Shown piece after piece: positions 15,359-31,402 of a stretch of 64,000 nt of DNA (position 1 is the first letter of the stretch; each line of letters starts with the position of its first letter). The stretch comes from an uncultured Candidatus Poseidoniales archaeon. Its GTDB lineage: Archaea; Thermoplasmatota; Poseidoniia; Poseidoniales; CAYMED01. The notes beneath the pieces were generated by a model. That model was not told the origin of the DNA. It was given only the letters and a program-made list of their open reading frames with translations, and ran no database searches. The stretch spans positions 661 to 64,660 of the forward strand of contig CAYMED010000012.1 in the NCBI GenBank assembly GCA_964389655.1. Reading direction: 5' to 3'. A program made the position numbers and the translations under genes.

Positions 15359-17163
15359 TATCCCCCAGCTCCAATAAACGATCCAACAGCAAATGACATA
15401 ACAAGGTCGACAATTAATCTTGTAATCGCAGCAGTCCATGTCAGAATGGCCATTTGTCCTAGGGTTCCAGCAACCTTCCCTCCACGTAACCTCGTGGTTA
15501 CAAAGGACATGCTAGCAATTTGAGACAATATCAGAAAACTAATTATTATTTGAAAGCTCAAAGTATTTCCTTTTACGGCGGTTGAATCAGATAATACGGG
15601 GATCCCAAAGCCCGCTAAATCTCCAAGCAAATCCCTTCCACCCTCAACAGATGTGGGGTCTGTAATGATTCCTGCCATTGATTGCCCTAAAGTTACAACA
15701 ATGTGGAGGGTGATGTCAAGGCTAGCGATTGTCGCTATCAATGTACCAAGTGCCACACCCCACATGGAGCCAGCAGAGATCATTCTTCTCTTCCTAAGAC
15801 TGTTGAGGTTCGTTGTAGTCTGACTAACAATATCTGCAACATCCGCTGGAAGTCCAGAGGTTTGGGCACCTTCGATATAGATGCGATTGAAACGACTAGA
15901 CATGGATGAATTAACTTCAGCGCTGAAATAATCCCATGCCCTATCACTGTCGATCCGCGTTGCCAATCTCCTTTCGAGACGTTCAATATCTGCGGAGAGT
16001 ATTCCAAAATCGATGCCCCTAAGGGCCTTCATTGTTGCACTCGGCTCAGAAGATCTCGCTTGAGCCGTTCCTCCAAGAGCACGAATAAATACGGGGTATG
16101 ATTCGTCCCGTCGCCGAATCCTTTCCTCTTCAGACTTCTCATACCTAGAGGCGAAAAGGAATGGGGTAAAAGGCAAGGCAGCCATCACCAAACCCCACCT
16201 TGCAAATGAATCAGCGACAAAACTGGGAGCAAGAATTGCAAATAAAATAACAAAGCCTCCAACCATAATCCCAATTGTGATTGAGATATTCCATATTCGA
16301 GAGAAGCGTTGTCTGTATGGAGTAACTAATCCATCCTTTGCAAATAGCGGTTCTGCGGGTATGACTGTTCTAAAAATAACAGCAGAAGCAACTTGTACAA
16401 AGAAAAACATTGCTCCTGAAAAAAGAACCCATCGCAACTGAGCTACTGCGTCTAGCCCGCTGTTTGGAGTTCCAGTAATGAATAGGACAAGATGAATTCC
16501 AGATACAACAAGCAAAAAAATCATTGCAGTAGAGAGTGAGATATAGAGCTCCTTGAGTATGTCTAGCGTTTCAAGCCTCGTGTCATATAGCGTTTGATAC
16601 TCTTGCCTAACCGTCACTAATTCACCAGACATGTATTCTTCAAGTGATTGACCGGACTCTATGCTGAATGCCATCCTGTCTAAAAAGTCAGCGAATAATG
16701 GGCTCGGCGTCTGGTTTGCAACAATTCGTGCGGCTTCAGGAAGGCTAGTATGCCATCGCTGGACCATCGTTTCAATTCGTTTTACTTCAACCGCGAGTTC
16801 TCCATATTCTGACATTTGACGTAACATGTCGAACATGCTTTTTGGGCCGACTTCGCCGAGGGCAAGAATCCCCATTCGAGTTACAAACATATGCATGTCT
16901 TGCTCAATCAAGGCCGCAGATTGCCGAAATTTAAGAATCGGCCATCCCATCACGATTAAGAGTGCCAATAGAGGTATGGCAAATGCATTGAGAACTCCTA
17001 CAGCACCACCAAGGATTGTTGGGAATAAGAATGCTAAAATGACACATGCTATGAAAAGACTACCTGCGAGGGGCGTGCCTAATCTCGTAAGCCTATGAAC
17101 GGGGTCTACTCCGATGCGGGCATAGGCAGCACCAACGACTTGCATACCCTGCATTCGTTCCAT
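15358..17163 (-). CDS. arlJ: Archaellum membrane platform protein ArlJ (FlaJ)
   Basis: 601-aa polytopic membrane protein with two cytoplasmic helical domains alternating with TM clusters (T2SF/TadBC-like layout). It directly follows arlI, and a GAGGGAG SD-like motif lies 5 nt upstream of the ATG. Confidence 0.85.
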   Translation of the reverse strand: MERMQGMQVVGAAYARIGVDPVHRLTRLGTPLAGSLFIACVILAFLFPTILGGAVGVLNAFAIPLLALLIVMGWPILKFRQSAALIEQDMHMFVTRMGILALGEVGPKSMFDMLRQMSEYGELAVEVKRIETMVQRWHTSLPEAARIVANQTPSPLFADFLDRMAFSIESGQSLEEYMSGELVTVRQEYQTLYDTRLETLDILKELYISLSTAMIFLLVVSGIHLVLFITGTPNSGLDAVAQLRWVLFSGAMFFFVQVASAVIFRTVIPAEPLFAKDGLVTPYRQRFSRIWNISITIGIMVGGFVILFAILAPSFVADSFARWGLVMAALPFTPFLFASRYEKSEEERIRRRDESYPVFIRALGGTAQARSSEPSATMKALRGIDFGILSADIERLERRLATRIDSDRAWDYFSAEVNSSMSSRFNRIYIEGAQTSGLPADVADIVSQTTTNLNSLRKRRMISAGSMWGVALGTLIATIASLDITLHIVVTLGQSMAGIITDPTSVEGGRDLLGDLAGFGIPVLSDSTAVKGNTLSFQIIISFLILSQIASMSFVTTRLRGGKVAGTLGQMAILTWTAAITRLIVDLVMSFAVGSFIGAGG

Positions 17164-17176
17164 TAATCTCCCTCAA

Positions 17177-18895
17177 TCAACTATCTTCAGGAACCCACGA
17201 CTCAATCGCTCTTCCCATAACCTCTAATCCCGCTCCATAGAATATGGCTAGCATTGTTTTGACATCTTCATAGTGCGTCAGATTTCGATCAACCATGCGC
17301 TGTATGATCTGGGCCCTCTTGTCCAATTCCTCATACACGAGTCGCTTGTTCGAAAGGCCCATTTTTGGGGCGATTCTTTCTTCTAATATGTATGATTGAT
17401 TCCGCCCACGGAAGAAGTGCTTGTCTCGAACCGGATCCCATTCAAAAACACCCCTTGTTAGGATCCCGTCACTGATTTTATTGTAGCCAAGGATTTCATC
17501 AACGCCCGTAATTCTTCTTGCAATCATACCCCCTGGCAATTGCACAATGGTTTGGAAAACGGCTAGGTTAAGGTTGTCAAAGAATCTGGCCGGGACATTA
17601 ATTGGGTCTCCCGTAAATCTCTGAATCATTTTTAGAATAGATGATGCGTGAAATGTGCCCAACACAGCGTGTCCAGTCTGCATTGCTTGGAATGCGGTGG
17701 AGCCTTCCTTCCCACGTATTTCCCCTATAATAATATATTTTGGCCGGCTCCTTAAAGCAGCCTTCAATAAGTCAAAGACATCGACCTTTGCTTCTTCATT
17801 TTTTGACTCACGTGTGACTAGCCTTTGCCATACCTTGTGTGGAACTTTAACTTCAGGAGTATCTTCGGCACTAAATATCTTGAAGTGGTGTGGGATTAGG
17901 GGCAATGTTGCATTTAATGTGGTGGTTTTTCCTGAAGCGGTTTCACCAGATACTAACATGGATTGTTCAAATTCATAACACATCCAAAGGTAGGCCGCAA
18001 GTTCAGATGACAATGTTCCCCATTGGATAAGCTGAATGAACGAGATGGTTTCTTCAGCAAATTTTCGAATTGTAAATGAGGGCCCGAATAAAGAAACATC
18101 ATCGCTGAATATGATATTTATTCGACTCCCATCAAGAAGGGCCGCATCCACAATTGGTTTTGAATCAGAAACGGGTCTTCCGATTCTCTCACTCATAGAT
18201 CGTAAATATCCCCCAAGCACGAGCCTATCTCTAAAGCGGATATTTGATAAGACCGTTCCGAATACTTTGTGATCCATATTTACTGACCGCAAACCAACTG
18301 AGTGTATGTCCTCAAGAAACTCATCAGAAAGGAGCGGTTCAATGGGCCCATTTCGAGTTAAATCCCGAATAATGATATATTCAATCCGATTTTTCTGATC
18401 TAAAGTCATCTTGATCTTCTTTTTCGCAAACCCAAACCGCTCAGCCAAACTTGTACCTCCGCTCGACTCTCCCTCTGACTGATCGAGAATTGTGTATCTT
18501 TCAATCATCGTTGTCAAAACTTGTTCAAATTCATCATCGCTTGAAAAAGTAGGAGCCGTGGGTGCTTGTTCGAGAATGATTTCCATTAATTCCTTTTTCA
18601 TTAGTTCTTCATCTTCATCGAGGCCGGGTTCAACAGCCATCCAAAGGGTCTGTGTGGGGTTCGTTTCATCAGCAGGGGGTTGGTATATGTGCACAAAAAT
18701 AGGTGGCTTTGTAATGTACAAGAGGTTTCTAGGTTCCACAGTTCTTGCATCTCGATCTAGTTCCCCATAATAGATGGGCCGACTACCATAACGATCTTGA
18801 AAATCATCAATCCACGTTCGAACATGCGGAAATGCATTCATGACATCATCTAGAGTTTTTAGTTCATCAACATTAATATCACTATTAGCCAACAT
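17177..18895 (-). CDS. arlI: Archaellum motor ATPase ArlI (FlaI)
   Basis: Secretion-superfamily ATPase motifs: Walker A GETASGKTTTLNA, Walker B region PKYIIIGEIRG, His box GHAVLGTFHA. The track ORF extends to 18946, but ATG 18895 (MLANSDINVDEL) lies 1 nt after the arlH stop and is the more plausible start. Confidence 0.9.
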   Translation of the reverse strand: MLANSDINVDELKTLDDVMNAFPHVRTWIDDFQDRYGSRPIYYGELDRDARTVEPRNLLYITKPPIFVHIYQPPADETNPTQTLWMAVEPGLDEDEELMKKELMEIILEQAPTAPTFSSDDEFEQVLTTMIERYTILDQSEGESSGGTSLAERFGFAKKKIKMTLDQKNRIEYIIIRDLTRNGPIEPLLSDEFLEDIHSVGLRSVNMDHKVFGTVLSNIRFRDRLVLGGYLRSMSERIGRPVSDSKPIVDAALLDGSRINIIFSDDVSLFGPSFTIRKFAEETISFIQLIQWGTLSSELAAYLWMCYEFEQSMLVSGETASGKTTTLNATLPLIPHHFKIFSAEDTPEVKVPHKVWQRLVTRESKNEEAKVDVFDLLKAALRSRPKYIIIGEIRGKEGSTAFQAMQTGHAVLGTFHASSILKMIQRFTGDPINVPARFFDNLNLAVFQTIVQLPGGMIARRITGVDEILGYNKISDGILTRGVFEWDPVRDKHFFRGRNQSYILEERIAPKMGLSNKRLVYEELDKRAQIIQRMVDRNLTHYEDVKTMLAIFYGAGLEVMGRAIESWVPEDS

Positions 18896-18896
18896 C

Positions 18897-19613
18897 TCAG
18901 GCCACCGCCGTAATGTCAAGGATGAAACCCATATTTGGTTCAACACGCCAACCTATAACGGACTGAATTGTCGCAGCAGCGCGCTGAAATCTCCGAACAA
19001 GCATGGTTCGCTTTAACTCCCCACCAATTATGTCGGCTGATAAATCGAGAAGGATTTCACATGATGTCGATAACCGATGCATCATCCGATCATCAATTTC
19101 GGTAGGGTCGCAGGCAAGAATGAGCAGGTGGTCATTGTCTGCAAACCTCCGTAAGCGATGGATGAGGGCGGCAGCCTCCGCATCACTCGTATCATGGCTT
19201 CCAGAGGTATCTACATCACCAATCAATGAGGATGCAGTATCAATAACAACAATTTCACTTTCCTTCACACGCTTCTCTTCAAGGATATCATCGATACCAA
19301 CCTCAGGCCGTGGAGCATGGCGCATGCTAAATGGCGATAATACGGTCAAACGCCCAGCATCTGCATGGGGTTCAACATCATACCCTAGGCTCTTCATCTG
19401 TTCAAACCAGCCGCGAGTACTCGATTCTGTTGTCGCCACTACAACTTTATGCTCATTTTCAAGAAGCCCATATGTAAATCGCTGAGTTAAAACACTTTTT
19501 CCCTCACCCATTTTTGCGCTAAGAACCATCATTGATCGTTTAGGAAGGAGGCCCCCTAATGCAATATCAAGGCTATCTGATTCAATAGCAAATTGAAACC
19601 CATCAGATGTCAA
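18897..19613 (-). CDS. arlH: Archaellum KaiC/RecA-like protein ArlH (FlaH)
   Basis: 238 aa with LGGLLPKRSMMVLSAKMGEGKSVLTQRFTYGLL (Walker A) and IVVIDT (Walker B-like). It sits between arlG and arlI. The TTG start overlaps the arlG end by 11 nt. Confidence 0.8.
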   Translation of the reverse strand: MTSDGFQFAIESDSLDIALGGLLPKRSMMVLSAKMGEGKSVLTQRFTYGLLENEHKVVVATTESSTRGWFEQMKSLGYDVEPHADAGRLTVLSPFSMRHAPRPEVGIDDILEEKRVKESEIVVIDTASSLIGDVDTSGSHDTSDAEAAALIHRLRRFADNDHLLILACDPTEIDDRMMHRLSTSCEILLDLSADIIGGELKRTMLVRRFQRAAATIQSVIGWRVEPNMGFILDITAVA

Positions 19614-20100
19614 GGCGAATCACCCCTGAAGTCACACAAGTGCCAGTTGAACCCGCCTTTGTTCCATCAACTGTATTCGAAGTGATGACCAACACCCCTT
19701 CATCACCATCTGAGTATGATGTGAAATCAGCAGTTGCTACAACCTTGTATATTTCTCCAGTAACCCAGTCACCTCCTGAAAGGACTGAACTAGACGCTGA
19801 CTTGAGCGTCAAACTGCTCCCATCAAAAAGAGATATTGTGGTCGTATCAAGTTCTTCAGTACCAGAGTTGATCAGATAAAATGTAATTTCATCAGGGTTT
19901 GGAACCGTGTTGACATCCACATCCAAAGGGTCTCCTGCGATTGATACTTCACAGCCTTCATCAAGTGCGGCTTTAATCGCTTGTTTTTCAGAAATTAATA
20001 CGAGCTCCGTAAAATTCTGGATAATAACTGCGGAAGCGATGCCTGCGGTAATTAAGGCGGCAACAAGCATGATGATACTACTAGCCCCACCATCAGCCAT
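19603..20100 (-). CDS. arlG: Archaellum protein ArlG (FlaG)-like
   Basis: 165 aa with an archaellin-like hydrophobic N-terminus (GGASSIIMLVAALITAGIASAVIIQNF) and a small beta-rich domain. GAGGGA lies 6 nt upstream of the ATG. The F versus G assignment rests mainly on gene order. Confidence 0.55.
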   Translation of the reverse strand: MADGGASSIIMLVAALITAGIASAVIIQNFTELVLISEKQAIKAALDEGCEVSIAGDPLDVDVNTVPNPDEITFYLINSGTEELDTTTISLFDGSSLTLKSASSSVLSGGDWVTGEIYKVVATADFTSYSDGDEGVLVITSNTVDGTKAGSTGTCVTSGVIRLDI

Positions 20101-20112
20101 TCATATCCCTCT

Positions 20113-20745
20113 CTAGAGTGCCACTCCTTTTGTAGCACTTAATGCATTAATTGCAAGCCTGCTCCACGCAGTGCTCCCACCAGTACTAATGTCTTTGACT
20201 GCGATAACCTCGCCCGAAAAAATGTACTCGTGCGTTGTATATTTGCTTGAAATTTTTTCTGGCGGGCCTCCATCAACAGAATACCACATGTCACTAATTG
20301 GAATTGTTTTTTCTCCATCGTTGGTGATGTTGAACCAAAGAGCATTGCCTTTTGTCGTAGAAAATACTGCATTCGAATCGCCCGCATGCGAGGGAGTAAT
20401 TACGACAATACCTGTGTAATCCTTTCCGTATTCTGTGATTGTAATGCTATCAATCTCTCCTGACATATCTACAGTATATGATGCACTAAAGCCCGACCCC
20501 CCCCCACTGGCAGTTAGCGTGCCTGAACTATATGTAGCACCACAAGGTGAACAAGAAACAGTAAGAATTGCGTTTGCATCACGCGTCGCATTATTGATGG
20601 TGATTTTCGCTTTTGGCTCTTCAGCCTCTTTGATTGTTTCAAGTGCTTCATCGAGGCGATGCCCAACGGATGTCAAGGCCATTGCAAGTGCAATCATGCA
20701 TGCCGTGCCTACGACAAGAGCGCCGACTCCAACGCTCGCACCCAT
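20113..20745 (-). CDS. arlF: Archaellum protein ArlF (FlaF)-like
   Basis: 210 aa with an N-terminal hydrophobic helix (VGVGALVVGTACMIALAMALTSV) and a Ser/Thr-rich beta domain. It starts 3 nt after the upstream stop, with a GGGGAGAG SD. The assignment rests mainly on order and size. Confidence 0.55.
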   Translation of the reverse strand: MGASVGVGALVVGTACMIALAMALTSVGHRLDEALETIKEAEEPKAKITINNATRDANAILTVSCSPCGATYSSGTLTASGGGSGFSASYTVDMSGEIDSITITEYGKDYTGIVVITPSHAGDSNAVFSTTKGNALWFNITNDGEKTIPISDMWYSVDGGPPEKISSKYTTHEYIFSGEVIAVKDISTGGSTAWSRLAINALSATKGVAL

Positions 20746-20748
20746 GTT

Positions 20749-21621
20749 TTACTCTCCCCGTGCTCCACCCGTCCTGTCTCTCCATCTTCGGAGATAATCG
20801 TGGAACGCGAGAAGGCTGCGTTGGCCGATACGCCCAGCACGGGGGCCAATCTCTTCTCCAGTCGAGAGTGTAAGGGATAGTAGACTTCTCATTTCTAATG
20901 CTTCATCCCCCATGATCAGGCCACTCCGCTCCGCTTCATCGACGAAGTGTAGGCACGCGCCGGGTTGCATATCAGCTAACAAAATCGCGGCCAAATGCGA
21001 TACAGTAATGGGGCCACTAGGGTCACTTCCAACTTCAGCCGCTGCCGCAATCTCTTCTTCAGTCAGTTCAAGGAATGGGTTGTAGGGGAGAAAGGCGAGT
21101 TCGTGTCTTCCAATCCCTCCTCGGGGTGGAGGTCGCGGCGCATTCTTGCCATTAACTGGGGCCCAATCACCCTCGGTTCCCTCAGTTGGGGCACTTTTTT
21201 CTTCAATTTTCACATCTTCTTCACCATCTGTAGTGGCGGCCACGGATGAGATTTTGGAGACCAGTTCTGGCAACGTCTCCATTATCCGATCTTCAAGTCC
21301 AGCGACCTTATCAACGACAGTTTCGAATTTAGATTCCATCATTTCTTCCAGTGCCTTTGTATCCGCTGGGGCCGAATCTTCACCGAACCCAGCGGCAACA
21401 CCCCTCCTCCCACCTTCGGAATCATCACTTCTTCCTCCAAATACTGCTCTTGTGGGCCCACTTGAAATGACCCAAGCATCTTCAGAACGAAGCATTCCTT
21501 GTTCAGCTACAACAACTTCGGAAAGGTCAAGGTCTGATATTGCAGAAAGACGATTGCTATCCCGCTCACGAATGACGTCTGCGTCCTTCTTACCTTTTCC
21601 GAAGAGCCAGCGTTTCGCCAT
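20749..21621 (-). CDS. Archaellum accessory protein in the ArlC/D/E slot (weakly ArlD/E-like)
   Basis: 290 aa with no TM. The N-terminal half is acidic, Gly-rich and probably disordered. The C-terminal ~110-aa helical domain (ELAFLPYNPFLELTEEEIAAAAEV...HFVDEAERSGLIMGDEALEMRSLLS) only loosely resembles the FlaD/E domain. GGAGGA lies 6 nt upstream of the ATG. Confidence 0.4.
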   Translation of the reverse strand: MAKRWLFGKGKKDADVIRERDSNRLSAISDLDLSEVVVAEQGMLRSEDAWVISSGPTRAVFGGRSDDSEGGRRGVAAGFGEDSAPADTKALEEMMESKFETVVDKVAGLEDRIMETLPELVSKISSVAATTDGEEDVKIEEKSAPTEGTEGDWAPVNGKNAPRPPPRGGIGRHELAFLPYNPFLELTEEEIAAAAEVGSDPSGPITVSHLAAILLADMQPGACLHFVDEAERSGLIMGDEALEMRSLLSLTLSTGEEIGPRAGRIGQRSLLAFHDYLRRWRDRTGGARGE

Positions 21622-21646
21622 CTTATATCCTCCATAACTCCCCCCT

Positions 21647-21667
21647 GGGGTGAGCGTAACTCACCCC
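21647..21667 (-). terminator. Perfect 8-bp stem-loop (GGGGTGAG-5 nt loop-CTCACCCC) between the second archaellin gene and the accessory genes; candidate attenuator or RNA-stability element
   Basis: Read directly from the sequence: ggggtgag cgtaa ctcacccc at 21647-21667, starting 20 nt downstream of the arlB stop (21687-21689) and ending 26 nt upstream of the next ATG (21621). No U-tract follows it. Confidence 0.45.
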
Positions 21668-21686
21668 TGAATGGGGAATCACGCGC

Positions 21687-22328
21687 TCAGACGACGAATG
21701 TGCCGGCAGTTACGACCCCTTTGTAACTCAGGGTTTCGTAAGTCGTTCCGCCGCCTTCAACATGGAAATACAAGGTGTGGTCTTCGTTTGCGGTTGGATC
21801 ACATTCTGTGCCTGCATTCTCTTCAGTAACGATGGATGTATAGTATGTCGTTCCAACACTGAGCGATGTCACCGCAGTCTTCGTGCTATCATCGAGTGCG
21901 ATTGCTCCAACGTCTTGTCCCCCAGCCGAAAGCACGCCTTCTACAAGGCCCATGGCTTCAGCACTGGTGGCGCAAAATATTTGGTAGGCGATTTTTGCAG
22001 CTGTTATTGTTTCACTTCCTGGGGATAGTTCAAAGGAGATTTTGATTCCCTGATCATCTGCATTACCACCCTGGCCATCGGCATCTGCAGCAGAATTTTC
22101 GTCAGCATCAGTGACTATGTGGACGGAAAGAATCGTGATTTTTCCCCCGATTTCCTCTTTGGTGTCTTGCCCAGTCTGCTGGGCATTTTGCTGAAGCTTT
22201 TCTGCCGTTTGGATAATCACGCTGGACGCGACAGCAGCAACTAGGACAAGGGCGATGAATACGATCATTGCGCCGATTCCAATTGCACCCTCTTCCTCGC
22301 GTGTATCATTGATTTGTTCCATATTCAT
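21687..22328 (-). CDS. arlB: Archaellin (ArlB/FlaB), copy 2
   Basis: 213 aa with a class III signal peptide plus the conserved archaellin N-terminus EEEGAIGIGAMIVFIALVLVAAVASSVIIQTAEKLQQNAQQTGQDTKEEIGGKI. Its ATG overlaps the upstream archaellin stop (ATGA at 22328-22325). Confidence 0.9.
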   Translation of the reverse strand: MNMEQINDTREEEGAIGIGAMIVFIALVLVAAVASSVIIQTAEKLQQNAQQTGQDTKEEIGGKITILSVHIVTDADENSAADADGQGGNADDQGIKISFELSPGSETITAAKIAYQIFCATSAEAMGLVEGVLSAGGQDVGAIALDDSTKTAVTSLSVGTTYYTSIVTEENAGTECDPTANEDHTLYFHVEGGGTTYETLSYKGVVTAGTFVV

Positions 22329-22957
22329 GTTACCACCTCTCCAAGCGTTCCTGAAGTATATTTCAGAGTTTCAAATGTAGATCCTCCATTTGGCACGTGA
22401 ACATACATGGTGTGCTGGAAACCCTGTGCTATTTTGCACCCGTCGTTATTGGTAGTAACCCCGGCGGTCGTGCCAAAGTCATCATACAGATCAGTAACGA
22501 TCACGCCTTGTTGTCCAGCACTAATTGTGGCCATAGCACTACCATCTGTGGCTGTTGTGGCATTTGTACCATCATCAATGTGTTCGTACAAGGATGCGAC
22601 CCCTTTGATGAAACCCCCATCTGCGGCAGTGCAAGTTATCTGAATTACAATGTCTGCCAAGGTAATTGTTTCAGATCCGGGGGATGTTTCAAACGTGATT
22701 GTCAACTTATAGTCGTCATTCACGTCAAGGGCGGTGGTGATGGCGGAAAGAATAACGATCTTTCCACCGATCTCATCGCGGGTGTCTTCTCCGGTATTTT
22801 GGGCGTTCTGTTGCAAATTTTCCGCAACCCCGATAATAACGGATGATGCTACGGCAGCGACTAAAACGAGCGCAATAAACACAATCATTGCGCCGATTCC
22901 AATCGCACCTCCATCATCCCGATCACTGTCGGGCTGCGCGTTGCCTATTGGGTGCAT
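22325..22957 (-). CDS. arlB: Archaellin (ArlB/FlaB), copy 1
   Basis: 210 aa with N-terminus DRDDGGAIGIGAMIVFIALVLVAAVASSVIIGVAENLQQNAQNTGEDTRDEIGGKI. It is the first gene after a 192-nt AT-rich intergenic region. Confidence 0.9.
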   Translation of the reverse strand: MHPIGNAQPDSDRDDGGAIGIGAMIVFIALVLVAAVASSVIIGVAENLQQNAQNTGEDTRDEIGGKIVILSAITTALDVNDDYKLTITFETSPGSETITLADIVIQITCTAADGGFIKGVASLYEHIDDGTNATTATDGSAMATISAGQQGVIVTDLYDDFGTTAGVTTNNDGCKIAQGFQHTMYVHVPNGGSTFETLKYTSGTLGEVVT

Positions 22958-23098
22958 GGCTTTCTGACGTACGCAAAGGGGTGATAAAGGAGACCCACGA
23001 TTAATTCTAATTGACTTGGATATAGTCGCTTTGAATTGAAATCTAGTTTCATTTTTTTGGGAAAATATTTGGTTCTATTTCTAGCCCATTATTGGCCG

Positions 23099-23117
23099 AA
23101 AAAAAACTCCAAAAAAA
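23099..23117 (-). terminator. Oligo-T tract pair (T7-GGAG-T8 on the minus strand), candidate archaeal intrinsic terminator for the upstream three-gene module
   Basis: The plus strand reads aaaaaaaactccaaaaaaa, beginning 33 nt downstream of the 328-aa gene stop. Archaeal termination is typically signalled by U-tracts. Confidence 0.4.
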
Positions 23118-23149
23118 GATCGCAATTCAATTTGAATAATTGTAATTCA

Positions 23150-24136
23150 TTATGATGAAACGTAGACGTCTCCCAAATCCGCATCGGGGCGGATCCAAAC
23201 ATTTGCCTCTTCACCCGCCTTTAGTTTGATGATGGCAGGATATGTTTTCAGCAAAAACCCCCTAGGCACCCACGGAGATAATACAACATTTCTGAGGGTT
23301 GTTAGTGATCTATTTTGAACCCGCATTGCGATCCTTACATCTCCGTGCTCAACAGTGTATCCGGTTGCAATTGAAACTGTGCGCATAAGGGGGATTGAAT
23401 CTGACCCTAAACTCCGAGATGGGATTAGATTAAACCTGAGGTTGACTGCAGCACCGGGGTCTATTGGGGGGACATCAATTTGCGTTGGGCTCCCCTCCCA
23501 CCCATTTGGAATTGGCGGCGCAAGGACCATTTCGGGCATGGTTGACTGCCCATCATTTTCAATTCTAATGACTAGGATTCCGTGATTCGAACCAGCGGGC
23601 CACCTTGCCTCCACTCCCATCCAAAATGCTCTATAGTGGAATGGATTGAATCTTGATGGATCATTTCCACTAACATCTTCAATCCCACCCTGCATGGATG
23701 TGATTGCATCCCCAAGTTGTCCATCCTCAACATGTAATGATGCTCGATGCAAACATGAAACCAGTAATTTCCGATCATCTTCAGTGGTTTGAATATCTTC
23801 TAAAAGAATTCGAATGAGCGCTACATTTCGCTTCATTTTCATAATTTCATTATCCAATGATCGAATACGGCTCCTCGCATTTTTGACCTCGCGCCGGGCA
23901 CGGATGATGCGGTGGTCATTCAAATCTTCCTTTGCACGATGTATTGCGTCTTCAATCGCTGTAATTGGGTTGTCTGTACTCCCGTCTCCACTGAGTTCTC
24001 GAACAGCACGCTCTACCTCGGCGGCGTGTTTGCGAATCTTCTCAATTTGGACACTTGAAGAGCGCAAGGCACTCTTCGCATCACGAATACCCATTTTGTC
24101 CTCATCCTCAGATTCATTTTCTTCGGACTCTGTCAT
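23150..24136 (-). CDS. Signal-less coiled-coil protein with two CARDB/NEW3-like beta-sandwich segments
   Basis: 328 aa with an acidic N-terminus (MTESEENESEDEDK) and a ~130-aa helical heptad-like region. It then carries ILVIRIENDGQSTMPEMVLAPPIPNGWEG...IDPGAAVNLRFNLIP and IAMRVQNRSLTTLRNVVLSPWVPRGF...LKAGEEANVWIRP. Its ATG directly abuts the upstream TAG, and a GAGAGGGGGGGG purine tract ends 6 nt before the ATG. Confidence 0.6.
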   Translation of the reverse strand: MTESEENESEDEDKMGIRDAKSALRSSSVQIEKIRKHAAEVERAVRELSGDGSTDNPITAIEDAIHRAKEDLNDHRIIRARREVKNARSRIRSLDNEIMKMKRNVALIRILLEDIQTTEDDRKLLVSCLHRASLHVEDGQLGDAITSMQGGIEDVSGNDPSRFNPFHYRAFWMGVEARWPAGSNHGILVIRIENDGQSTMPEMVLAPPIPNGWEGSPTQIDVPPIDPGAAVNLRFNLIPSRSLGSDSIPLMRTVSIATGYTVEHGDVRIAMRVQNRSLTTLRNVVLSPWVPRGFLLKTYPAIIKLKAGEEANVWIRPDADLGDVYVSS

Positions 24137-27100
24137 CTAAACCCCCCCCTCTCTATTGGCAGGACTTACATTTTCTTCTGCATGGAGTATCTTGTCAACA
24201 GCGGTTGCAGGTTCTCCGAGTTGATCTGCCAACATCATTGCTTCACTCTGAACATCTGCGATTTGTCCGAACGTGACTCCATATAATCGATCAATAAGTG
24301 TCAATAGGCCGATGATCAAGAGGGCTTGGCCAATAATAGCAAATAGTAATGTGGTCAGGTTTTGGGGGTCTAGGATGAATATTGGGGGTATACCAATGGC
24401 AATTAGGAGGAATGGACAAATTGAGAGGCCAAGTATGATTGTTAAAGAACCCCTCATCCTACGCAGTTCAGAGGCATGGTTAACAAATGAACTATTCAAT
24501 CCCCTTCTAGCCAATTCATGATCCTGATGGATAACCAACAATTCTTCTGAAGACCACCATACGATGGCGAGTATCCAAATAGAGGTTAGGGCCAACAAGA
24601 TCCACCCTCCGCTTTCTAGAATTCCAATGTGGAAAGCAAAACCAAATGCGGAAGAACCCGTAAATGCAGCGCCCAAACGCAACTTCTCACGATCTTCTTC
24701 TTTTCCCATGGAAGTGAGTGCAATCGTGAGGCCAACGGCAGCAAGGGTTGCAATAATCGCAGCAATCATCGGTACACTCCGAGATACAACTGAACCCTTG
24801 AACTCCATCATGTCATTTGCTTGAACATTAGAAGATACGCCCTGAACGTCCAATTCTACCTTGCACGTGAAATCCTGTTTTGTGGCCCACCATGGCATGC
24901 TAATTTTTTCAATAGCCCATGTAATTTCGACGTATTCCAAAGGAGGCACGGGGGGGACCTCTATTTGTCGCCCACCCTTGAGTGAGACTCCATCACACGT
25001 CGCTATGGCGGTTGTTGAGGGGATGCCTGCAGTCCCTGAATTGAAAATTTCAACAACAATGATTCCTGCCTCGCCTTCTCTCAAAGACAAACCTTCGAGC
25101 CCCCGCTTTGGCTCTCGCAATATTGCATCCGCCTCCGCCTCCAACCGAATTTGGAGAACTGATTTAGTGGCGTGCGAGATTTCCCCATCCGGTGAGATCA
25201 CTAACATTAGGTCATAACCATCTCCCACAACCATATTTTCAGCAGGAGGGAGTTCCATTTCAATAATAATTTGCCCATGCCCCCATCTGTCGATAGGCAT
25301 CAATTCAACAGCGACGTATTGGGGCCCCAAGTCGTTTGTTTGTCCCTCCACCACAATGGAGTGAAATATCCATTCTTCTGCTTCTTGCGCAGATGCACTG
25401 ATTCGAGCAGCCTGAACTGCTGAGAAATAATGGTCAGGTATGACTTGATCACCTAAGCGAGCAAGGGTTGGAACGTGAGTCCAATCAACAATTATTTTGG
25501 GTTTTTCTCCTGGGCTGACATAGATGGGTCCATCAAAGCTCATCCGCTCAATGCGTAGATTCCGAAGCAAGGATATGCGGCCACGAATTTCATCAGAGAC
25601 GGGAACAATGTCTAGGGTAAGGTTGGTTGTTTCTTGATGATAATGGTCTGGAGCAATGGGCGTAATTTGAACTATAAATGAAACAATTTCTGTGCGGGGG
25701 AGGATAATGGGTTCCGAAGGGACAGTAACATTCCAGCGTGTGGGGTCTAATGTGGTTGCGTTAATCTTTGCCTCAAGGCTTGATAAAATACCGTCATTTC
25801 GAACTTCAAACGAGATATTTTTCGTAATCCCAGGCCGAATGTCAACTAATGTCGGAGGCGTGGAAACAAAAGTTACTACAAATGGCGTTTCAACAATTAC
25901 AATTGTGGACGCATTTACGGCGACTTCATTGTTTTCATCCATCATGTTCACGAGCAAGTTGGTGCGTTCAGCAGAATCGAGAATTTGCGTTGAATTTAGG
26001 GGGGGAACGGTAAATGTAAGGTCCAGTGTGACTGATACTGGAAGATTATCTGTTCCTGGCGGCTGTATTGTAAATATAGTCGGCCCAATACCTAACGACC
26101 AAGCAGCATTGTGATCCGAAACCGCTCTAAGGTTTTCAGCAGTATTGCCGCGGTTTGTGACTATCACTTGTGTTGTGGTTGTTTCCCCAGGCGCGATGAT
26201 AATCTCAGATGGCAAATCGATGGTTAAATCATGCGTTTCAAGAATTTCTATTGCTAGGGATACAACATCAAGTGGATCTGAACTATCTGGTGATATTAAT
26301 TCGACCAGGGCATCATATGCTTCATCCGAACGTGCATACATTGCACTACTGATTTCAAGACGCAACAATCTTTCTTCGTTTGGGGCAATTAACACGCCAT
26401 CTGGTGTAGATACATTAATTGTGATGGAATTCGAATTAATGGATGCAATCCTGAGGGCAAATGTGCTAGGTGCGTTACCTGTGTTTGTAGCTTTGATTAG
26501 AAGTGATGTTGTCGACCCACTTTGCATCCGCGCATCAACTGTGTCGGTTGGGGACAAAACCGCAGCAATGGTGCGATTTACAGTAGTTACATAACTGTGG
26601 GATGCCAGAAGACTTCCAGTATCAATTGACCTTACCTCGATATCAATCATCCCTACTGTTCCTGCAATGACTCCTTCGAGGGGCATAATATCCGCATAGA
26701 ATGATTGCGAATTCACATTTGTGGCTGGATAAGATGCCATAGGGGGTGAGATGATTCCTGTTTGTGAGCGGGAAAGTAAGATACTCCACCCATTTGGGGC
26801 ACTTGCAATTAAATCGTATGCGGATGGGTGATTGCCGATGTTTTCGACACTAATGCTAAGGCGTCCTCCGTAGGCTGGATCCAAATTAAGTGGTGCTGCA
26901 TCAATTAGATTTGCCCGCTCAACTTCAGGGATGCGAACAATGAGTTGTCTGATGATTGCTTGACTTGAGATTGTGGTTAATGCGCCATTTGGCGTGACCG
27001 TAAGTTCCACAGGTATGGCTAAATCTCCTGCAAGGGGTAATCCATGCACTCCCGTGGGCAATGGGCCCAATATGGCAATTTCAATTTCAGCTTCATCATC

Positions 27101-28828
27101 AATGCCGATTGTGCTTGCTAGAGATTGTAGTTGAAGCGTCCACCGGTCGGCCTCAGAACTTGATGCATTGCTCGCGGCATCAAATGTCTTGTTTCCAATC
27201 GCAGCAGTTACATCAACAGTATCTGCAATGTTCCGAACGATATTGTGGCGTAGTGTAATGGACCCTGTTGCGACCCGAACAATTTTATCTGCTAATATCT
27301 CATTTTTAGAAACAAGGAGGACATCTTCGTCAAATTCAACATCTGCAATTAGGACTGCTTGTACTTCGAGTGTTGCTTGGGATGTGGAGGGCATACCCCC
27401 TGTTGATGGCGTTGCTTGCAGCCACACTTCGATTTGATCGTTTTCTCGGAGATGGGAATTTGGGTCCATAGGGCGAGTAAGCTCAGGTGGTTTGACATGT
27501 ACGTTTATGCTGACATTTTCATTTGGCTGAAGAATACTTGTTGCGGTCATTTCGGGTGTAACCTCCCATCCAATCGCTACAGTTGCTAATCCAGCACTTA
27601 TGTCAAATGTAGCTGGAATATTCCCCTCATTTTTGACAACATATGTGATGTCAACTGAATTTGGGGGAGTTAGCGGGATTAATCCCGTTGGAGCGCTAGT
27701 GTTTGCTATTATGACGTCCCCGGCAAGAACATACGCGCGCCCCTGTAATACATAGCCGGCATTAACTGAAGTTAATGTCAAATCCAACGTATCAAAATTT
27801 GCCCGGCTTGCATTTTCTGGCACAGTAACGGGAACCTGAACAGTTCCAGTTTCCCCTGCATTCAATATCGCGGTTTGCAAGGGCATGGATGCGGGGTCAG
27901 CCCACCCCTGTGTGCTTGTAAGTCCTATGTTCCACCGATCAGCAGCAAGCCCTTTGTTGAGTATCACAAAAGCCAAGTTTGTATTTGCTCCCGGAGATAT
28001 TGCTGTACTCGCAGGATCAATTAATTCAGCAACATAAGGGGAGACGTCTACAACATCACTGGGAATTTCCAATTTGACATTATCTCCTCCCGATGAAGTA
28101 AGAGTAATCGTTCCATTCAAGAGAATCGTTCCTGTGAGGTTGGCCAAATCTATGTTGACGTCAATTCCTTGTGCGGAAGCGGGGGCGTTAATTTCTCCAG
28201 GCAGGAGGGAAGTCGTCGGCCCAGTCCAACTTCCTCCTGAAACACTCCCGGACCATGCAGTAATTCGCACTACTACATCGACGGCAATGGTGCCGGTATT
28301 TCGGACAGAGACGCGAGCACTCGCGGTTTCGGGTGGATGGCGCCCATTTGGCAAAGATGAATCTACCAATTCACCATTGACAAGTTCTACGCCGTCATAA
28401 GCAATATTTTGAATGTTATCTGAGACATCAGCATCTCCGACTTGCTCTAGGCGGAGGGAAAGGGTCCAACTGAGCCCGGGGTGTACGATCCACTTTAGTT
28501 CATATGTTGCTTGTTCACCCGGGAGGAGAACAACAGCAGCACTATCTACTTCTGTTTCAACAGCCCCTGAATCAACTTCAAATGCCTTCAACGTCCCATT
28601 ACTGTTGCTTGTTCCGTTGTTTTCTATTGTCACTCGAACTGTGTGTTCGCCCGGTGCAAGAACAATCGTTGTAGCATTTTCAATACCATCTCCTAGGATT
28701 TTTGTCTGGACAAATTCAAGGTCGGGGGGCCCTCTCCCACTTGTTGCAGTTACTGATAGAATTAAGGGTGATAATAGCAGAATTAGTACTATTATTGCAC
28801 ACGTGGGTCTTCGACTATTAGGGGACAT
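24137..28828 (-). CDS. Giant (1563 aa) surface protein: signal/anchor, 10 or more Ig-like CARDB/NEW3-type modules, C-terminal 5-helix membrane domain
   Basis: N-terminus CAIIVLILLLSPLILSVTATSG. Recurring strand motifs are VSVRNTGTIAVDV, FVILNKGLAADRW, YVVKNEGNIPATF, ISVENIGNHPSAY, IKATNTGNAPSTF, VIVTNRGNTAENL, FEVRNDGILSS and VEIFNSGTAGI. There are many N-x-S/T sequons. The C-terminal hydrophobic helices include MIAAIIATLAAVGLTIAL, GWILLALTSIWILAIVWW, LTIILGLSICPFLLIAIGI and LLFAIIGQALLIIGLLTL. Confidence 0.8.
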   Translation of the reverse strand: MSPNSRRPTCAIIVLILLLSPLILSVTATSGRGPPDLEFVQTKILGDGIENATTIVLAPGEHTVRVTIENNGTSNSNGTLKAFEVDSGAVETEVDSAAVVLLPGEQATYELKWIVHPGLSWTLSLRLEQVGDADVSDNIQNIAYDGVELVNGELVDSSLPNGRHPPETASARVSVRNTGTIAVDVVVRITAWSGSVSGGSWTGPTTSLLPGEINAPASAQGIDVNIDLANLTGTILLNGTITLTSSGGDNVKLEIPSDVVDVSPYVAELIDPASTAISPGANTNLAFVILNKGLAADRWNIGLTSTQGWADPASMPLQTAILNAGETGTVQVPVTVPENASRANFDTLDLTLTSVNAGYVLQGRAYVLAGDVIIANTSAPTGLIPLTPPNSVDITYVVKNEGNIPATFDISAGLATVAIGWEVTPEMTATSILQPNENVSINVHVKPPELTRPMDPNSHLRENDQIEVWLQATPSTGGMPSTSQATLEVQAVLIADVEFDEDVLLVSKNEILADKIVRVATGSITLRHNIVRNIADTVDVTAAIGNKTFDAASNASSSEADRWTLQLQSLASTIGIDDEAEIEIAILGPLPTGVHGLPLAGDLAIPVELTVTPNGALTTISSQAIIRQLIVRIPEVERANLIDAAPLNLDPAYGGRLSISVENIGNHPSAYDLIASAPNGWSILLSRSQTGIISPPMASYPATNVNSQSFYADIMPLEGVIAGTVGMIDIEVRSIDTGSLLASHSYVTTVNRTIAAVLSPTDTVDARMQSGSTTSLLIKATNTGNAPSTFALRIASINSNSITINVSTPDGVLIAPNEERLLRLEISSAMYARSDEAYDALVELISPDSSDPLDVVSLAIEILETHDLTIDLPSEIIIAPGETTTTQVIVTNRGNTAENLRAVSDHNAAWSLGIGPTIFTIQPPGTDNLPVSVTLDLTFTVPPLNSTQILDSAERTNLLVNMMDENNEVAVNASTIVIVETPFVVTFVSTPPTLVDIRPGITKNISFEVRNDGILSSLEAKINATTLDPTRWNVTVPSEPIILPRTEIVSFIVQITPIAPDHYHQETTNLTLDIVPVSDEIRGRISLLRNLRIERMSFDGPIYVSPGEKPKIIVDWTHVPTLARLGDQVIPDHYFSAVQAARISASAQEAEEWIFHSIVVEGQTNDLGPQYVAVELMPIDRWGHGQIIIEMELPPAENMVVGDGYDLMLVISPDGEISHATKSVLQIRLEAEADAILREPKRGLEGLSLREGEAGIIVVEIFNSGTAGIPSTTAIATCDGVSLKGGRQIEVPPVPPLEYVEITWAIEKISMPWWATKQDFTCKVELDVQGVSSNVQANDMMEFKGSVVSRSVPMIAAIIATLAAVGLTIALTSMGKEEDREKLRLGAAFTGSSAFGFAFHIGILESGGWILLALTSIWILAIVWWSSEELLVIHQDHELARRGLNSSFVNHASELRRMRGSLTIILGLSICPFLLIAIGIPPIFILDPQNLTTLLFAIIGQALLIIGLLTLIDRLYGVTFGQIADVQSEAMMLADQLGEPATAVDKILHAEENVSPANREGGV

Positions 28829-29304
28829 TAGTCATTCCCCCCGGGTAATTGAAAATCAGAAATTCTTGTGTATTTGCCTTTAGCCTTCCTTTTTGAAACC
28901 ATGATTGATAATAATTCAACATGTTCTTTATCAGATATTCCAAATTTTCGCCGCTCATCCCACAAAAGGAGTTGTTCTGTTGCAGTTAGTACACCATCTT
29001 CAAGATAGATATCCAATGACTTTCGATATGAATCTCGGTCTGAAAGCGCATATACTTGCGTTGATGAATCAAACTCGTCATTGTACCTGTGTATTTGATT
29101 CCCCAAGTGTGTTGCTTCATCAAGAGTGATTGAACGGCGTTCAACTTCAACCTGTATCTCAGTTGCCACTTCTTGCAATTCGTAAGCGGTATCGGCGCGC
29201 TGAATACGCTTGAGAAAGCGCCGACCTCTGCGGGACAAGCGCTCCGCTGCCACGTATACAAGCGGCATGGGGCGGGTTATCAAATCGCCTGTTGAATTAT
29301 TCAA
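28828..29304 (-). CDS. Small basic helical cytoplasmic protein, first gene of the coupled surface module
   Basis: The track start is TTG 29304 and the first ATG is at 29268 (MPLVYVAAERLSRRGRRF). The C-terminal LEDGVLTATEQLLLWDERRKFGISDKEHVELL weakly resembles TerB/DjlA-N-type helical modules. Its stop TAA shares a base with the next ATG (TAATG, 28830-28826). Confidence 0.5.
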   Translation of the reverse strand: MNNSTGDLITRPMPLVYVAAERLSRRGRRFLKRIQRADTAYELQEVATEIQVEVERRSITLDEATHLGNQIHRYNDEFDSSTQVYALSDRDSYRKSLDIYLEDGVLTATEQLLLWDERRKFGISDKEHVELLSIMVSKRKAKGKYTRISDFQLPGGND

Positions 29305-29413
29305 AGTGAATCATAATTAAACATAATGATTTAATCGTGCACCCCCAAAACATAGCACATACACCCTAAAATGAAGGATCTTGACATTTAACTATGGAAT
29401 CAAAATACTCCTT

Positions 29414-30079
29414 TCAGTTACAAATTTCGTTTGGCCCTCTTGTACCACTTACTAGTGCGACCGGCCAAACAGAACATCCCGGGCCAAGGATGACACCAGG
29501 ATTCAATACTGCATTGCAACCGATACTCACATCTGCTCCAACTAAGGATCCAAACTTTCTCAAACCAGTATCCACCATTTTAGTTCCAATCCGCACTCGC
29601 ACCTCATTGTTATCATGGCGTAGATTAGAGAGTATGACCCCAGCACCCAAATTTGAGTTCGGTCCAATAATGCTATCTCCAACATAGTTGAAATGAGGTG
29701 CTTTTGCCCCTGGTAGAAGAATGCTATGCTTAATTTCACAAGCATGGCCAAGGACCGACTCGCGACATAACCATGACCATGCCCGAACATATGCATTAGC
29801 ACGCACTTCTGCATTTGGGCCGATGTAACATGGGCCTTCGATTATTGCAGAGCTGGCGATTTTCGCAGATGGATCAATCCAAACCCCCCCTTCAAGAGTC
29901 AATTTTGTGGAGGCAAAATCACATCTCTGGTCCAGCGCAGCAATTTGACTTCGAAGATTCCCTTTACTATTTGGGTCGATTAATACCCACGGCGTTCCAC
30001 CTTCTGGATATACTGGCGCAGCCCAAAGGTCGCTATCCCACTTTGGCCAAAGTTCCTCTGCAGTTGCAACCCATGACAC
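29414..30079 (-). CDS. Left-handed beta-helix (hexapeptide-repeat) transferase, GlmU-C-terminal-like
   Basis: Hexapeptide periodicity in IASSAIIEGPCYIGPNAEVRANAYVR, IIGPNSNLGAGVILSNL and VGADVSIGCNAVLNPGVILGPGCSV. Confidence 0.7.
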   Translation of the reverse strand: MSWVATAEELWPKWDSDLWAAPVYPEGGTPWVLIDPNSKGNLRSQIAALDQRCDFASTKLTLEGGVWIDPSAKIASSAIIEGPCYIGPNAEVRANAYVRAWSWLCRESVLGHACEIKHSILLPGAKAPHFNYVGDSIIGPNSNLGAGVILSNLRHDNNEVRVRIGTKMVDTGLRKFGSLVGADVSIGCNAVLNPGVILGPGCSVWPVALVSGTRGPNEICN

Positions 30080-30109: not shown

Positions 30110-31402
30110 CTACCGCCCTTTCCCTTCTCCGACCCAAGTAGGGGGGGGTGCTCTAAGTCGATACACAATCACAAGGATCCGATCTAGCAACAACCCCGTA
30201 ATTCCCAAACCAATCAATAGAATTGCATTTTTCATTCCCCAAAGCGGTGCTAATAACATTGCGATCCCCAACCATCTCGAACAAAACCCTAGGGCAGATA
30301 TGGACCTTGAAAGAAACATTCTTCGTTCTAATCTAGGTACTTCAAGCAACCTTTCTCGCAATTCAGCAGACTTTCCTTTTCCCAATATTTTGAATTCCGC
30401 CACTTCAATCAATAAGCACTCATAAACCCAAATTGAGATGCCCCCTCTATGGCCATCAAGAACCCTGCGGTTGGCCCACATTCTAGGGGCAGTTGCCTTC
30501 CATCCCGCGATAAATACCTGTCGAGCAGCCTTTGAGTCTTCGTGTGATAGGTTAGCTCGGTCAAGGTCTAGTAGAATTCGACCAATATCACGTGTGGCAG
30601 GTAACTCCTTGTCAGGTAACAAAACCTCAACCCATGACTGAGATGGTTCAACCATGCCAATAATCACGCCCTCTGAACTAACGATCCAATCTCTAACCCC
30701 GGGTCCGTTGAGGTCTATTGTTGCGTGTGTGCTTAGCGTGTGTGGTGCTCTCCAAAGAGTATTTGCCTGAGTCCACCCTTCTAGCAATTTGAGCCTATTG
30801 TTCCAAGACCTTTGATCAGATGCTGAGCATTTTCTCTTCGCAGAAACTCTGTGACAGCGTCCAAGAACTTGTCCTAATTTCGTAGCACCATCTTTTGGAA
30901 AATCTCTTATTTCTGAAATTAGATTTTTTGATCCACTTGGCACTTTCAATTGGCTAATTACAATTTTCCCTTCAATACTAACTAGCACTTTAGATGAGGA
31001 TAATCCAGCCCCCTTGAGCACTTTCTTCCGTTCTTCAAATAATTTGGGTGTGCTTCGATGAAGCCGCACCCATTTGCATTCGCCTTTTTGTTCTATGAGC
31101 CAAGTAACTTCCCTTTGGCTGGTGTGTAGAGGGACCATTCCGAAAAGTGGCTCAAAAGAGCCACTTTTTCCATGCACTTTACCACCATTTTTCTTTACAT
31201 CTTCAAGAAAATCCACCCATTCTTCCTTTTCTTTCAAGATTCCTTCAATTAGTAACTGTTTTGTTTGATCTTTTGGTATTGCAACTTTGAGTGGACCATA
31301 TTCCTTGATCTCAACAGACTGCAAAAAATTCGCATCGAGACCTACTAGGGTCTCCATCATAATCTCGGCTAAGGCCTTGTACTCTTCTATTCTGCCGGTC
31401 AA
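30110..31402 (-). CDS. Membrane-anchored protein with weak kinase/APH-like fold cues
   Basis: 430-aa ORF. The track start TTG overlaps the upstream stop (TTGA, 31402-31399), and the first ATGs are at 31360 and 31357. Cues are HATIDLNGPGVRDWIV and ATRDIGRILLDLD. Two C-terminal hydrophobic helices are present (WLGIAMLLAPLWG; AILLIGLGITGLLL). Family not established. Confidence 0.45.
   Translation of the reverse strand: MTGRIEEYKALAEIMMETLVGLDANFLQSVEIKEYGPLKVAIPKDQTKQLLIEGILKEKEEWVDFLEDVKKNGGKVHGKSGSFEPLFGMVPLHTSQREVTWLIEQKGECKWVRLHRSTPKLFEERKKVLKGAGLSSSKVLVSIEGKIVISQLKVPSGSKNLISEIRDFPKDGATKLGQVLGRCHRVSAKRKCSASDQRSWNNRLKLLEGWTQANTLWRAPHTLSTHATIDLNGPGVRDWIVSSEGVIIGMVEPSQSWVEVLLPDKELPATRDIGRILLDLDRANLSHEDSKAARQVFIAGWKATAPRMWANRRVLDGHRGGISIWVYECLLIEVAEFKILGKGKSAELRERLLEVPRLERRMFLSRSISALGFCSRWLGIAMLLAPLWGMKNAILLIGLGITGLLLDRILVIVYRLRAPPPTWVGEGKGR

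Follow-up and report, generated by a model that had tools for sequence, protein, structure and literature searches.

A conserved three-gene unit upstream of the archaellins is a lineage-specific part of the Poseidoniales archaellum gene cluster

Background

What is the role of three genes that stand at the head of an archaeal motility cluster? The question is raised by a 64-kb stretch of DNA from an uncultured Candidatus Poseidoniales archaeon (GenBank assembly GCA_964389655.1, contig CAYMED010000012.1), which in its whole length we refer to as the window. Three abutting open reading frames (ORFs) lie there on the minus strand, directly upstream of two archaellin genes and of arlF/G/H/I/J. We call them the triad: a small gene, a big gene coding for a 1563-aa envelope protein (24137..28828, minus strand) and a third gene coding for a 328-aa protein without signal peptide (23150..24136, minus strand). 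In its mechanical extent, the small ORF occupies 28828..29304 of the minus strand (158 aa from the TTG at 29304). A first-pass annotation had described this layout next to the archaellins, and we reproduced its coordinates and strand in the sequence. We report that the triad is a promoter-proximal, lineage-specific part of the archaellum gene cluster of Poseidoniales (Marine Group II, MGII), and we weigh what it may do there.

The order has no cultured member, according to the introductions of papers on the group (including PMC6336850). The distribution of the operon within the order was reported by Rinke 2019 (PMC6461757) and Orellana 2019 (PMC6864105), and no chemotaxis genes have been reported in the order (PMC6461757, PMC6864105). 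A figure of a 'putative MGII motility operon' by Tully 2019 contains conserved genes without annotation (PMC6336850), among which the triad may be. If those genes do include the triad, its synteny is not wholly new. The proteins themselves have never been analysed: our literature search found no paper that analyses any of the three.

Results

Linkage of the triad to the archaellum cluster

We scanned one genome per species for relatives of the small protein and found them in 249 genomes. The locus counts refer to the best 80 of these 249, and only loci long enough to show a given neighbour enter each count. By title, the 80 loci are almost all Poseidoniales, Poseidoniaceae, Thalassarchaeaceae or unnamed Euryarchaeota/Methanobacteriota metagenome-assembled genomes, while a few contigs bear bacterial bin names. 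The big gene is present in 77 of the 80 loci, the third gene in all 57 and arlB in all 46. A reverse test was seeded on another protein of the cluster, of 290 aa, and considered the best 80 loci on metagenome contigs, as opposed to whole genomes. Upstream of the seed, arlB was found in 50/50 loci, the third gene in 39/39, the big gene in 32/32 and the small gene in 18/18. The gene order is small-big-third-arlB(-arlB)-290aa-ArlF-ArlG-ArlH-ArlI-ArlJ in every locus of sufficient length, and the big gene is operon-embedded beside arl genes wherever it was seen. The triad is kept together as a unit, always beside arlB, whichever end the search starts from. Its association with the archaellum is strongly supported, and the link to motility suggested by the first-pass annotation is tighter than proposed, the triad being contiguous with arlB in most lineages. 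The window represents a lineage at about the same distance from every other one (ArlH 38-49%, ArlI 57-67%) and known from two metagenome contigs only.

The remaining archaellum cluster of the window extends over 15358..22957 (minus strand throughout). It starts with arlB1 (22325-22957) and arlB2 (21687-22328), both assigned by Pfam Arch_flagellin, and continues with the gene for the 290-aa protein (20749-21621), an ArlF-like gene (20113-20745) and the genes for ArlG (19603-20100), the KaiC-like ArlH (18897-19613), ArlI (T2SSE, 17177-18946) and ArlJ (T2SSF, 15358-17163). No ArlC, ArlD, ArlE or ArlX is recognisable in this cluster. Between arlB2 and the ArlF-like gene, the slot held elsewhere by ArlCDE or ArlX is filled by the 290-aa protein, which is conserved throughout the order, evolves as slowly as ArlH and has no match in Pfam or NCBIfam. 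An invariant NPF(L) motif is common to the 290-aa and 328-aa proteins; kinship of the two, suggested by this motif, was rejected (hhalign probability 1.5%). No Pfam or NCBIfam model of the named Arl proteins (ArlC, D, E, X, F, G, H, I, J) matches the triad, FlaC_arch staying under the cut-off with an E-value of 0.43. Taken together, profile, PDB and fold searches place the triad in no characterised system, as had been supposed from the sequence.

Gene junctions and regulatory elements

The three genes are tightly packed, and both junctions first noted in the window were confirmed. The small and big genes overlap by 1 nt in TAATG (28826..28830, minus strand). At the big/third junction (24134..24153, minus strand), the stop abuts the start in GAGAG8-TT-TAG|ATG, with GAGAG8 at 24153-24142 and TAG|ATG at 24139-24134, and the G-rich tract looks like a Shine-Dalgarno sequence. 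Elsewhere, the small and big genes overlap by 1-17 nt in 59 of 78 loci and are separated by 2-16 nt in the other 19, while an overlap of 1-20 nt between the big and third genes occurs in 46 of 60 loci, most commonly of 8 nt (36/60). In the window, the big and third genes share the same frame, with the TAG as sole separator and a G8 homopolymer ahead of it, so that read-through would yield a 1892-aa fusion. We rejected such read-through as a general mechanism. Since the genes overlap out of frame in other lineages, the in-frame TAG of the window is probably incidental.

A promoter-like block, GGCGATTTGATAACCCGCC (29271..29289, minus strand), resembling a B recognition element and TATA box, lies upstream of the small gene. 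It aligns with a conserved CCGATTCTTTGAATAACTGCC block that ends about 15-22 nt before the start in more than 60 loci and is found upstream of the small gene only. The block is a putative promoter. It ends 17 nt before the GTG at 29253, which points to a leaderless or near-leaderless transcript. Both this block and the alignment with orthologues make GTG 29253 the likeliest start of the small gene (28828..29253, minus strand; 141 aa, MAAERLSRRG...); the database gene call begins at ATG 29268 (146 aa). The 158-aa version starting from TTG 29304 is almost certainly over-extended, because that codon falls within a palindrome (29299-29311) and because the orthologues and the promoter-like block converge on GTG 29253.

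This palindrome, ATTCA-N3-TGAAT, occurs twice in the window, once upstream of the small gene (29299..29311) and once at 23125..23137, 13 nt past the stop of the third gene and upstream of arlB1. Two exact copies of the 13-nt element compare with 0.30 expected in 64 kb, and 3 of 100 shuffled sequences reach this number. A relaxed form, AT[TG]CA-N3-TG[AC]AT, lies at a fixed position of -89 from the start of the small gene in 32 of 83 loci (L008, L012, L023, L024, L032, L036 and others). Between the third gene and arlB, it is found only in the four other lineages with a long gap (L057, L065, L070, L090). These two positions account for 36 of the 52 relaxed matches in 1.2 Mb. Where arlB has its own upstream region, that region carries the same palindrome. 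The distribution of the palindrome and of the promoter-like block indicates that the main regulated promoter of the cluster precedes the small gene, and ATTCA-N3-TGAAT is a candidate operator for a motility regulator.

The gap between the third gene and arlB has a median of about 57 nt, and 52 of 54 loci have no run of five or more Ts in it. The exceptions are L086 and the window, where the gap extends to 192 nt and contains T7 and T8. The resulting T7-GGAG-T8 tract (23099..23117, minus strand) may act as an oligo-T terminator of the triad transcript and is also similar to the promoter-like block (GCGATC-T-rich-CGGCC). It had been read as the end of the module, and its presence at 23117-23099 is beyond doubt; as a general feature it does not hold, being confined to these two of the 54 loci. 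In most lineages, the gap carries a conserved hairpin, TTCCACCC-stem-loop-stem-GGAGGACGAG, followed by an A-rich tract, GGTGA and ATG (for example L019:16530-16595 and L039:15250-15306, plus about 40 other loci). Compensatory changes occur in its stem (one pair counts GC 13 and UA 6), and the element may have a role in mRNA processing, stability or translation. This hairpin is absent from the window, and a search for known RNA families (Rfam) over positions 22800-29600 of the window, a region without it, returned none.

A multi-Ig envelope protein of fixed architecture

The big protein begins with a Sec-type signal peptide (residues ~1-29). Its cleavage-type motif is VTA|TSG in the window, and VDA|TSG and ATA|TEA in orthologues. 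Tat export was discarded as the RR of the n-region is not kept in orthologues. A hidden Markov model (HMM) iterated on the orthologues delineated nine clear and one to two weak CARDB/NEW3-like Ig modules between residues 48 and 1325 (48-136, 154-250, 264-356, 376-472, 522-624 as a weak one, 638-735, 754-848, 865-961, 985-1078 and 1244-1325), in agreement with the ten or more such modules originally proposed. Pfam CARDB and HYDIN_VesB_CFA65-like_Ig match above their cut-offs (27.9 versus 22.7 bits and 34.1 versus 25.5 bits, respectively), and NPCBM_assoc falls slightly under its own (23.6 versus 24.4 bits). The many N-x-S/T sequons seen at first reading are in excess: the ectodomain has 18, against 11.9 ± 3.0 expected (p ~0.03), and the count exceeds expectation in 93% of the orthologues.

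At the C-terminal end, hydropathy analysis returned four clear hydrophobic segments within residues 1346-1521. We identified a fifth helix by eye in the sequence (~1383-1400), which brings the total to the five transmembrane (TM) helices initially described (~1352-1513). The part of the gene that codes for the five helices and the loop between TM3 and TM4 corresponds to 24290..24775 (minus strand). A 50-aa acidic tail follows the helices. The charge distribution, by the positive-inside rule, predicts that this tail and the TM1-TM2 and TM3-TM4 loops are cytoplasmic. The TM3-TM4 loop has the family consensus W.S..EFQLIHEDYQRARKG, with invariant E, H, D, G and H, and reads WWSSEELLVIHQDHELARRG in the window. 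No relative of the five-TM region was found among PDB sequences. The orthologues align colinearly, and their length has a median of 1644 aa and an interquartile range of 1629-1670 aa. On the contig with an identical 328-aa protein (Joint Genome Institute 3300008629, L173), the big gene was called as 1498 aa and not 1563 aa, a difference that could derive from an alternative start, an indel or the assembly.

Signal peptide, many Ig-like modules, sequons and C-terminal membrane anchor recall the archaeal S-layer glycoproteins. The big protein might therefore be a general cell coat or S-layer-like protein that lies beside motility genes by chance, and a weak match to a putative S-layer model of NCBIfam (E 0.012) goes in the same direction. 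The score of this curated model, NF033506, is however only 14.3 bits, far under the cut-off of 110. The NCBIfam choice-of-anchor T model also remains below threshold (39.2 versus 70 bits). In addition, the big gene is the second of a three-gene unit within the archaellum cluster in every locus examined, and shares the putative regulatory palindrome of the cluster. Moreover, about half of the genera of Thalassarchaeaceae lack the operon (PMC6461757) and would hence be left without a coat. We consider a general coat very improbable, and because the big gene sits inside the archaellum operon we do not favour the coat or S-layer-like role that the first-pass annotation had put forward.

Two flanking proteins without signal peptides

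The two flanking products had been described as lacking signal peptides, and hydropathy analysis finds no hydrophobic segment in either. The small protein had also been called basic. Its N-terminus is, the first 27 residues having a median net charge of +8 and a minimum of +5 in the family alignment; the protein overall is not, with an isoelectric point of 6.3 for the 158-aa ORF and 25 K+R against 26 D+E. It has an invariant core (YA.SDRD.YR..L..YL.D..L...EQLLLW.ERR..GI), and its AlphaFold2 (AF2) model consists of six helices with a predicted local distance difference test (pLDDT) score of 82. No PDB fold matches this model (best E-value 1.4), and searches against Pfam, NCBIfam, PDB sequences and PDB folds assign the protein to no described family. 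A TerB-like identity, guessed from a DG.LT..E motif, was unsupported by Pfam, PDB sequences and fold search. A weak match to PDC-S48 of PADLOC was detected in 25 of 34 members of the small-protein family (E <= 0.01, best 2.4e-4, ~18 bits), over positions 180-269 of the 411-position profile. PDC-S48 carries no description in PADLOC, and we found no mention of it in the literature; the match hints at a helical domain common to the two. We dismissed a defence-system identity for the triad: this match is the sole one of its kind, the other two proteins having none.

The third protein combines an acidic N-terminus, five long helices (~6-156), the invariant NPF at 164-166 and a C-terminal beta-sandwich region (~175-320), the helices and the sandwich being read from a low-confidence model. 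This AF2 model has a pLDDT of 56.6, from an alignment of 12 sequences of two lineages, and a fold search on it carries no meaning. An exhaustive profile search among 1.84 billion representatives returned 60 relatives, mostly fragments. A cryptic secretion signal, which would place the protein outside the cell, was sought and none was found. Pfam, NCBIfam and PDB sequence searches link it to no described family; Pfam EzrA scores 16.5 bits against a threshold of 39.6, and EzrA in the PDB has an E-value of 0.26. The likeness of its beta region to the Ig modules of the big ectodomain, pointed out earlier, is real and also weak, and concerns the first beta domain. The HMM of the big-protein modules matches the third protein at an E-value of 0.004 and no further ORF of the window, and Pfam NPCBM_assoc gives 15.2 bits (E 0.026), under the cut-off.

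Evolutionary rates and charge

To compare rates, we binned pairs of loci by the identity of their ArlH. Identities of the small protein follow those of ArlH and the 290-aa protein (for example, 89/89/88% and 75/74/69%). Those of the big protein go with ArlF and ArlG (70/71/71% and 45/45/46%), and the third protein falls in between. The big protein shows no hypervariability: it retains 95% identity where the archaellin (arlB) is at 88%. The median net charge is -10 for the tail of the big protein, -9 for the N-terminus of the third protein and +8 for that of the small protein.

These rates bear on whether the big protein is a co-expressed adhesin for attachment to particles, outside the motor, with the cytoplasmic pair aiding its insertion or anchoring. 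Rinke et al. argue for adhesion as the purpose of the operon (PMC6461757), a large multi-Ig ectodomain rich in sequons would suit that task, and the palindrome common to both upstream regions implies co-regulation. Adhesins, however, usually vary in repeat number and evolve fast, whereas the big protein keeps a stable length and module order throughout the order and varies less than the archaellin between close relatives. Furthermore, five TM helices and two dedicated, highly conserved cytoplasmic partners would be unexpected for a simple adhesin. We regard the adhesin as a live if rather unlikely alternative.

We assign the same low probability to a surface sensor or regulator, whose ectodomain would sense particles or surfaces and whose five-helix domain would signal to the small and 328-aa proteins, tuning archaellum assembly or rotation in place of a chemotaxis/ArlCDE switch. 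Chemotaxis genes have not been reported in the order (PMC6461757, PMC6864105) and ArlC/D/E are unrecognisable in the cluster. The invariant E/H/D/G/H residues of the cytoplasmic loop would be in keeping with signalling, as would the small protein, very conserved like a core partner of ArlH, and CARDB/NEW3-type modules are known from carbohydrate-active surface proteins. Profile searches recognise no signalling domain in any protein of the triad, though, and start/stop overlaps in most loci together with a fixed ten-module architecture look more like a structural part made in stoichiometric amounts.

Other genes of the window

Archaeal PolD and primase genes also lie in the window. After arlJ, on the same strand, a 940-aa ORF (12617-15439, minus strand) codes for a highly charged, coiled-coil-rich protein with four repeats of W.G..Y/F.L..FYQ/K.AWKRWGD. 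In MGIIb-type loci (L010, L067, L076, L086 and L087), related ORFs are found upstream of the small gene in divergent orientation, and its product might be another cluster-associated protein. At 31399-34578 (minus strand), a 1059-aa secreted protein combines numerous calcium-binding repeats of thrombospondin type 3 with a TM helix at its C-terminus. It is of the kind of the 'thrombospondin' adhesion genes noted in Poseidoniales by Rinke et al. (PMC6461757).

Discussion

In the reading that we favour, the triad forms one structural complex across the envelope, accessory to the archaellum and serving as its scaffold or stator anchor; we hold this reading tentatively, at a little under an even chance. 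An envelope-spanning assembly with cytoplasmic partners, as imagined in the first-pass annotation, fits the predicted topology, the gene overlaps and the charge complementarity. The big protein would be exported by Sec, expose some ten Ig-like modules, glycosylated, on the outer face of the cell and be held in the membrane by its five helices, with the conserved TM3-TM4 loop and the acidic tail facing the cytoplasm. There, loop and tail would be met by the small, highly conserved helical protein with its basic N-terminus, and by the helical/Ig 328-aa protein. The complex would act as an envelope scaffold or anchor, providing a fixed base for the ArlF/ArlG stator and the ArlH/I/J core to push against. 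Mutual binding of the three proteins, contact with the motor and a mechanical role are what we infer. Several observations lead us to favour a scaffold or stator anchor: the overlaps between the genes look stoichiometric, the architecture of the big protein is fixed, the evolutionary rates match the compartment, and two dedicated cytoplasmic partners accompany the big protein. Furthermore, no ArlCDE or ArlX is recognisable in the cluster, and how the stator is anchored in Thermoplasmatota that lack an S-layer is open (PMC12448462).

Other considerations weigh against a scaffold. Synteny and co-regulation fit a co-expressed adhesin or a sensor equally well, and the matching of rates is partly a mirror of the cell compartment alone. 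The 290-aa protein occupies the ArlCDE/ArlX slot, and the scaffold may therefore not be 'missing' at all. Among other Thermoplasmatales without an S-layer, swimming relies on a standard cluster (PMC12448462). In the window, the T-tracts part the triad from arlB and may give it a separate transcript there. Finally, the AF2 model of the 328-aa protein is poor (pLDDT 56.6), and neither this model nor that of the small protein matched a solved structure.

Known systems offer partial parallels. ArlX in Crenarchaeota and ArlC/D/E in Euryarchaeota are lineage-specific cytoplasmic accessories of the archaellum, coiled-coil or helical, that are thought to surround ArlH/I/J. Like the triad, they are encoded in the arl cluster, occur in a single lineage each and comprise helical cytoplasmic proteins. 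They differ in that they have no sequence similarity to the triad, which lies upstream of arlB and not between arlB and arlF/G, and in having no counterpart of its 1563-aa extracellular multi-Ig protein with five TM helices. Bacterial flagella possess accessory scaffolds, such as the basal disks and the H/T rings of Vibrio and Campylobacter, which are lineage-specific, encoded with motility genes and span the envelope around the core motor. The likeness to the triad would be one of function only; both the proteins and the machine are unrelated. Archaeal S-layer glycoproteins and COG1470-type CARDB/NEW3 membrane proteins share with the big protein the signal peptide, the tandem Ig-like modules, the sequons and a C-terminal anchor. 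The big protein is instead anchored by five helices with a conserved cytoplasmic loop and tail, not by a single pass or a lipid, and its gene is in an operon with two genes for predicted cytoplasmic proteins, strictly tied to the archaellum cluster. With the S-layer-anchored ArlF/ArlG stator, the big protein has in common that it is extracellular and membrane-anchored, and its evolutionary rate equals that of ArlF and ArlG. Unlike it, these two proteins are small and archaellin-like, each having one hydrophobic helix at the N-terminus, and the cluster of the window already encodes both; the big protein is not archaellin-like and has proposed cytoplasmic partners. The part of fixed point, played elsewhere by the S-layer (PMC12448462), could here fall to the big protein. 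A bolder form of the scaffold reading, possible and rather doubtful, is that the triad is an unrecognised trans-envelope stator or anchor complex peculiar to the planktonic archaea of highest abundance, in which the giant ectodomain would form an extracellular collar and two new folds would couple it to ArlH/I/J. This would be a third solution for bracing an archaeal rotary motor, beside ArlCDE and anchoring through ArlX and the S-layer.

Conclusions

Poseidoniales are reported to be the most abundant archaea of the surface ocean (PMC6461757), and whether and in what way they swim or attach bears on the processing of particulate organic matter. The three genes, strictly co-inherited and seemingly co-regulated, are concrete candidates for the missing stator-anchor part of their archaellum, among them one subunit as conserved as ArlH and an envelope protein of some 1600 aa with fixed architecture. 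The palindrome ATTCA-N3-TGAAT offers, in turn, a candidate operator for the motility regulator of the order.

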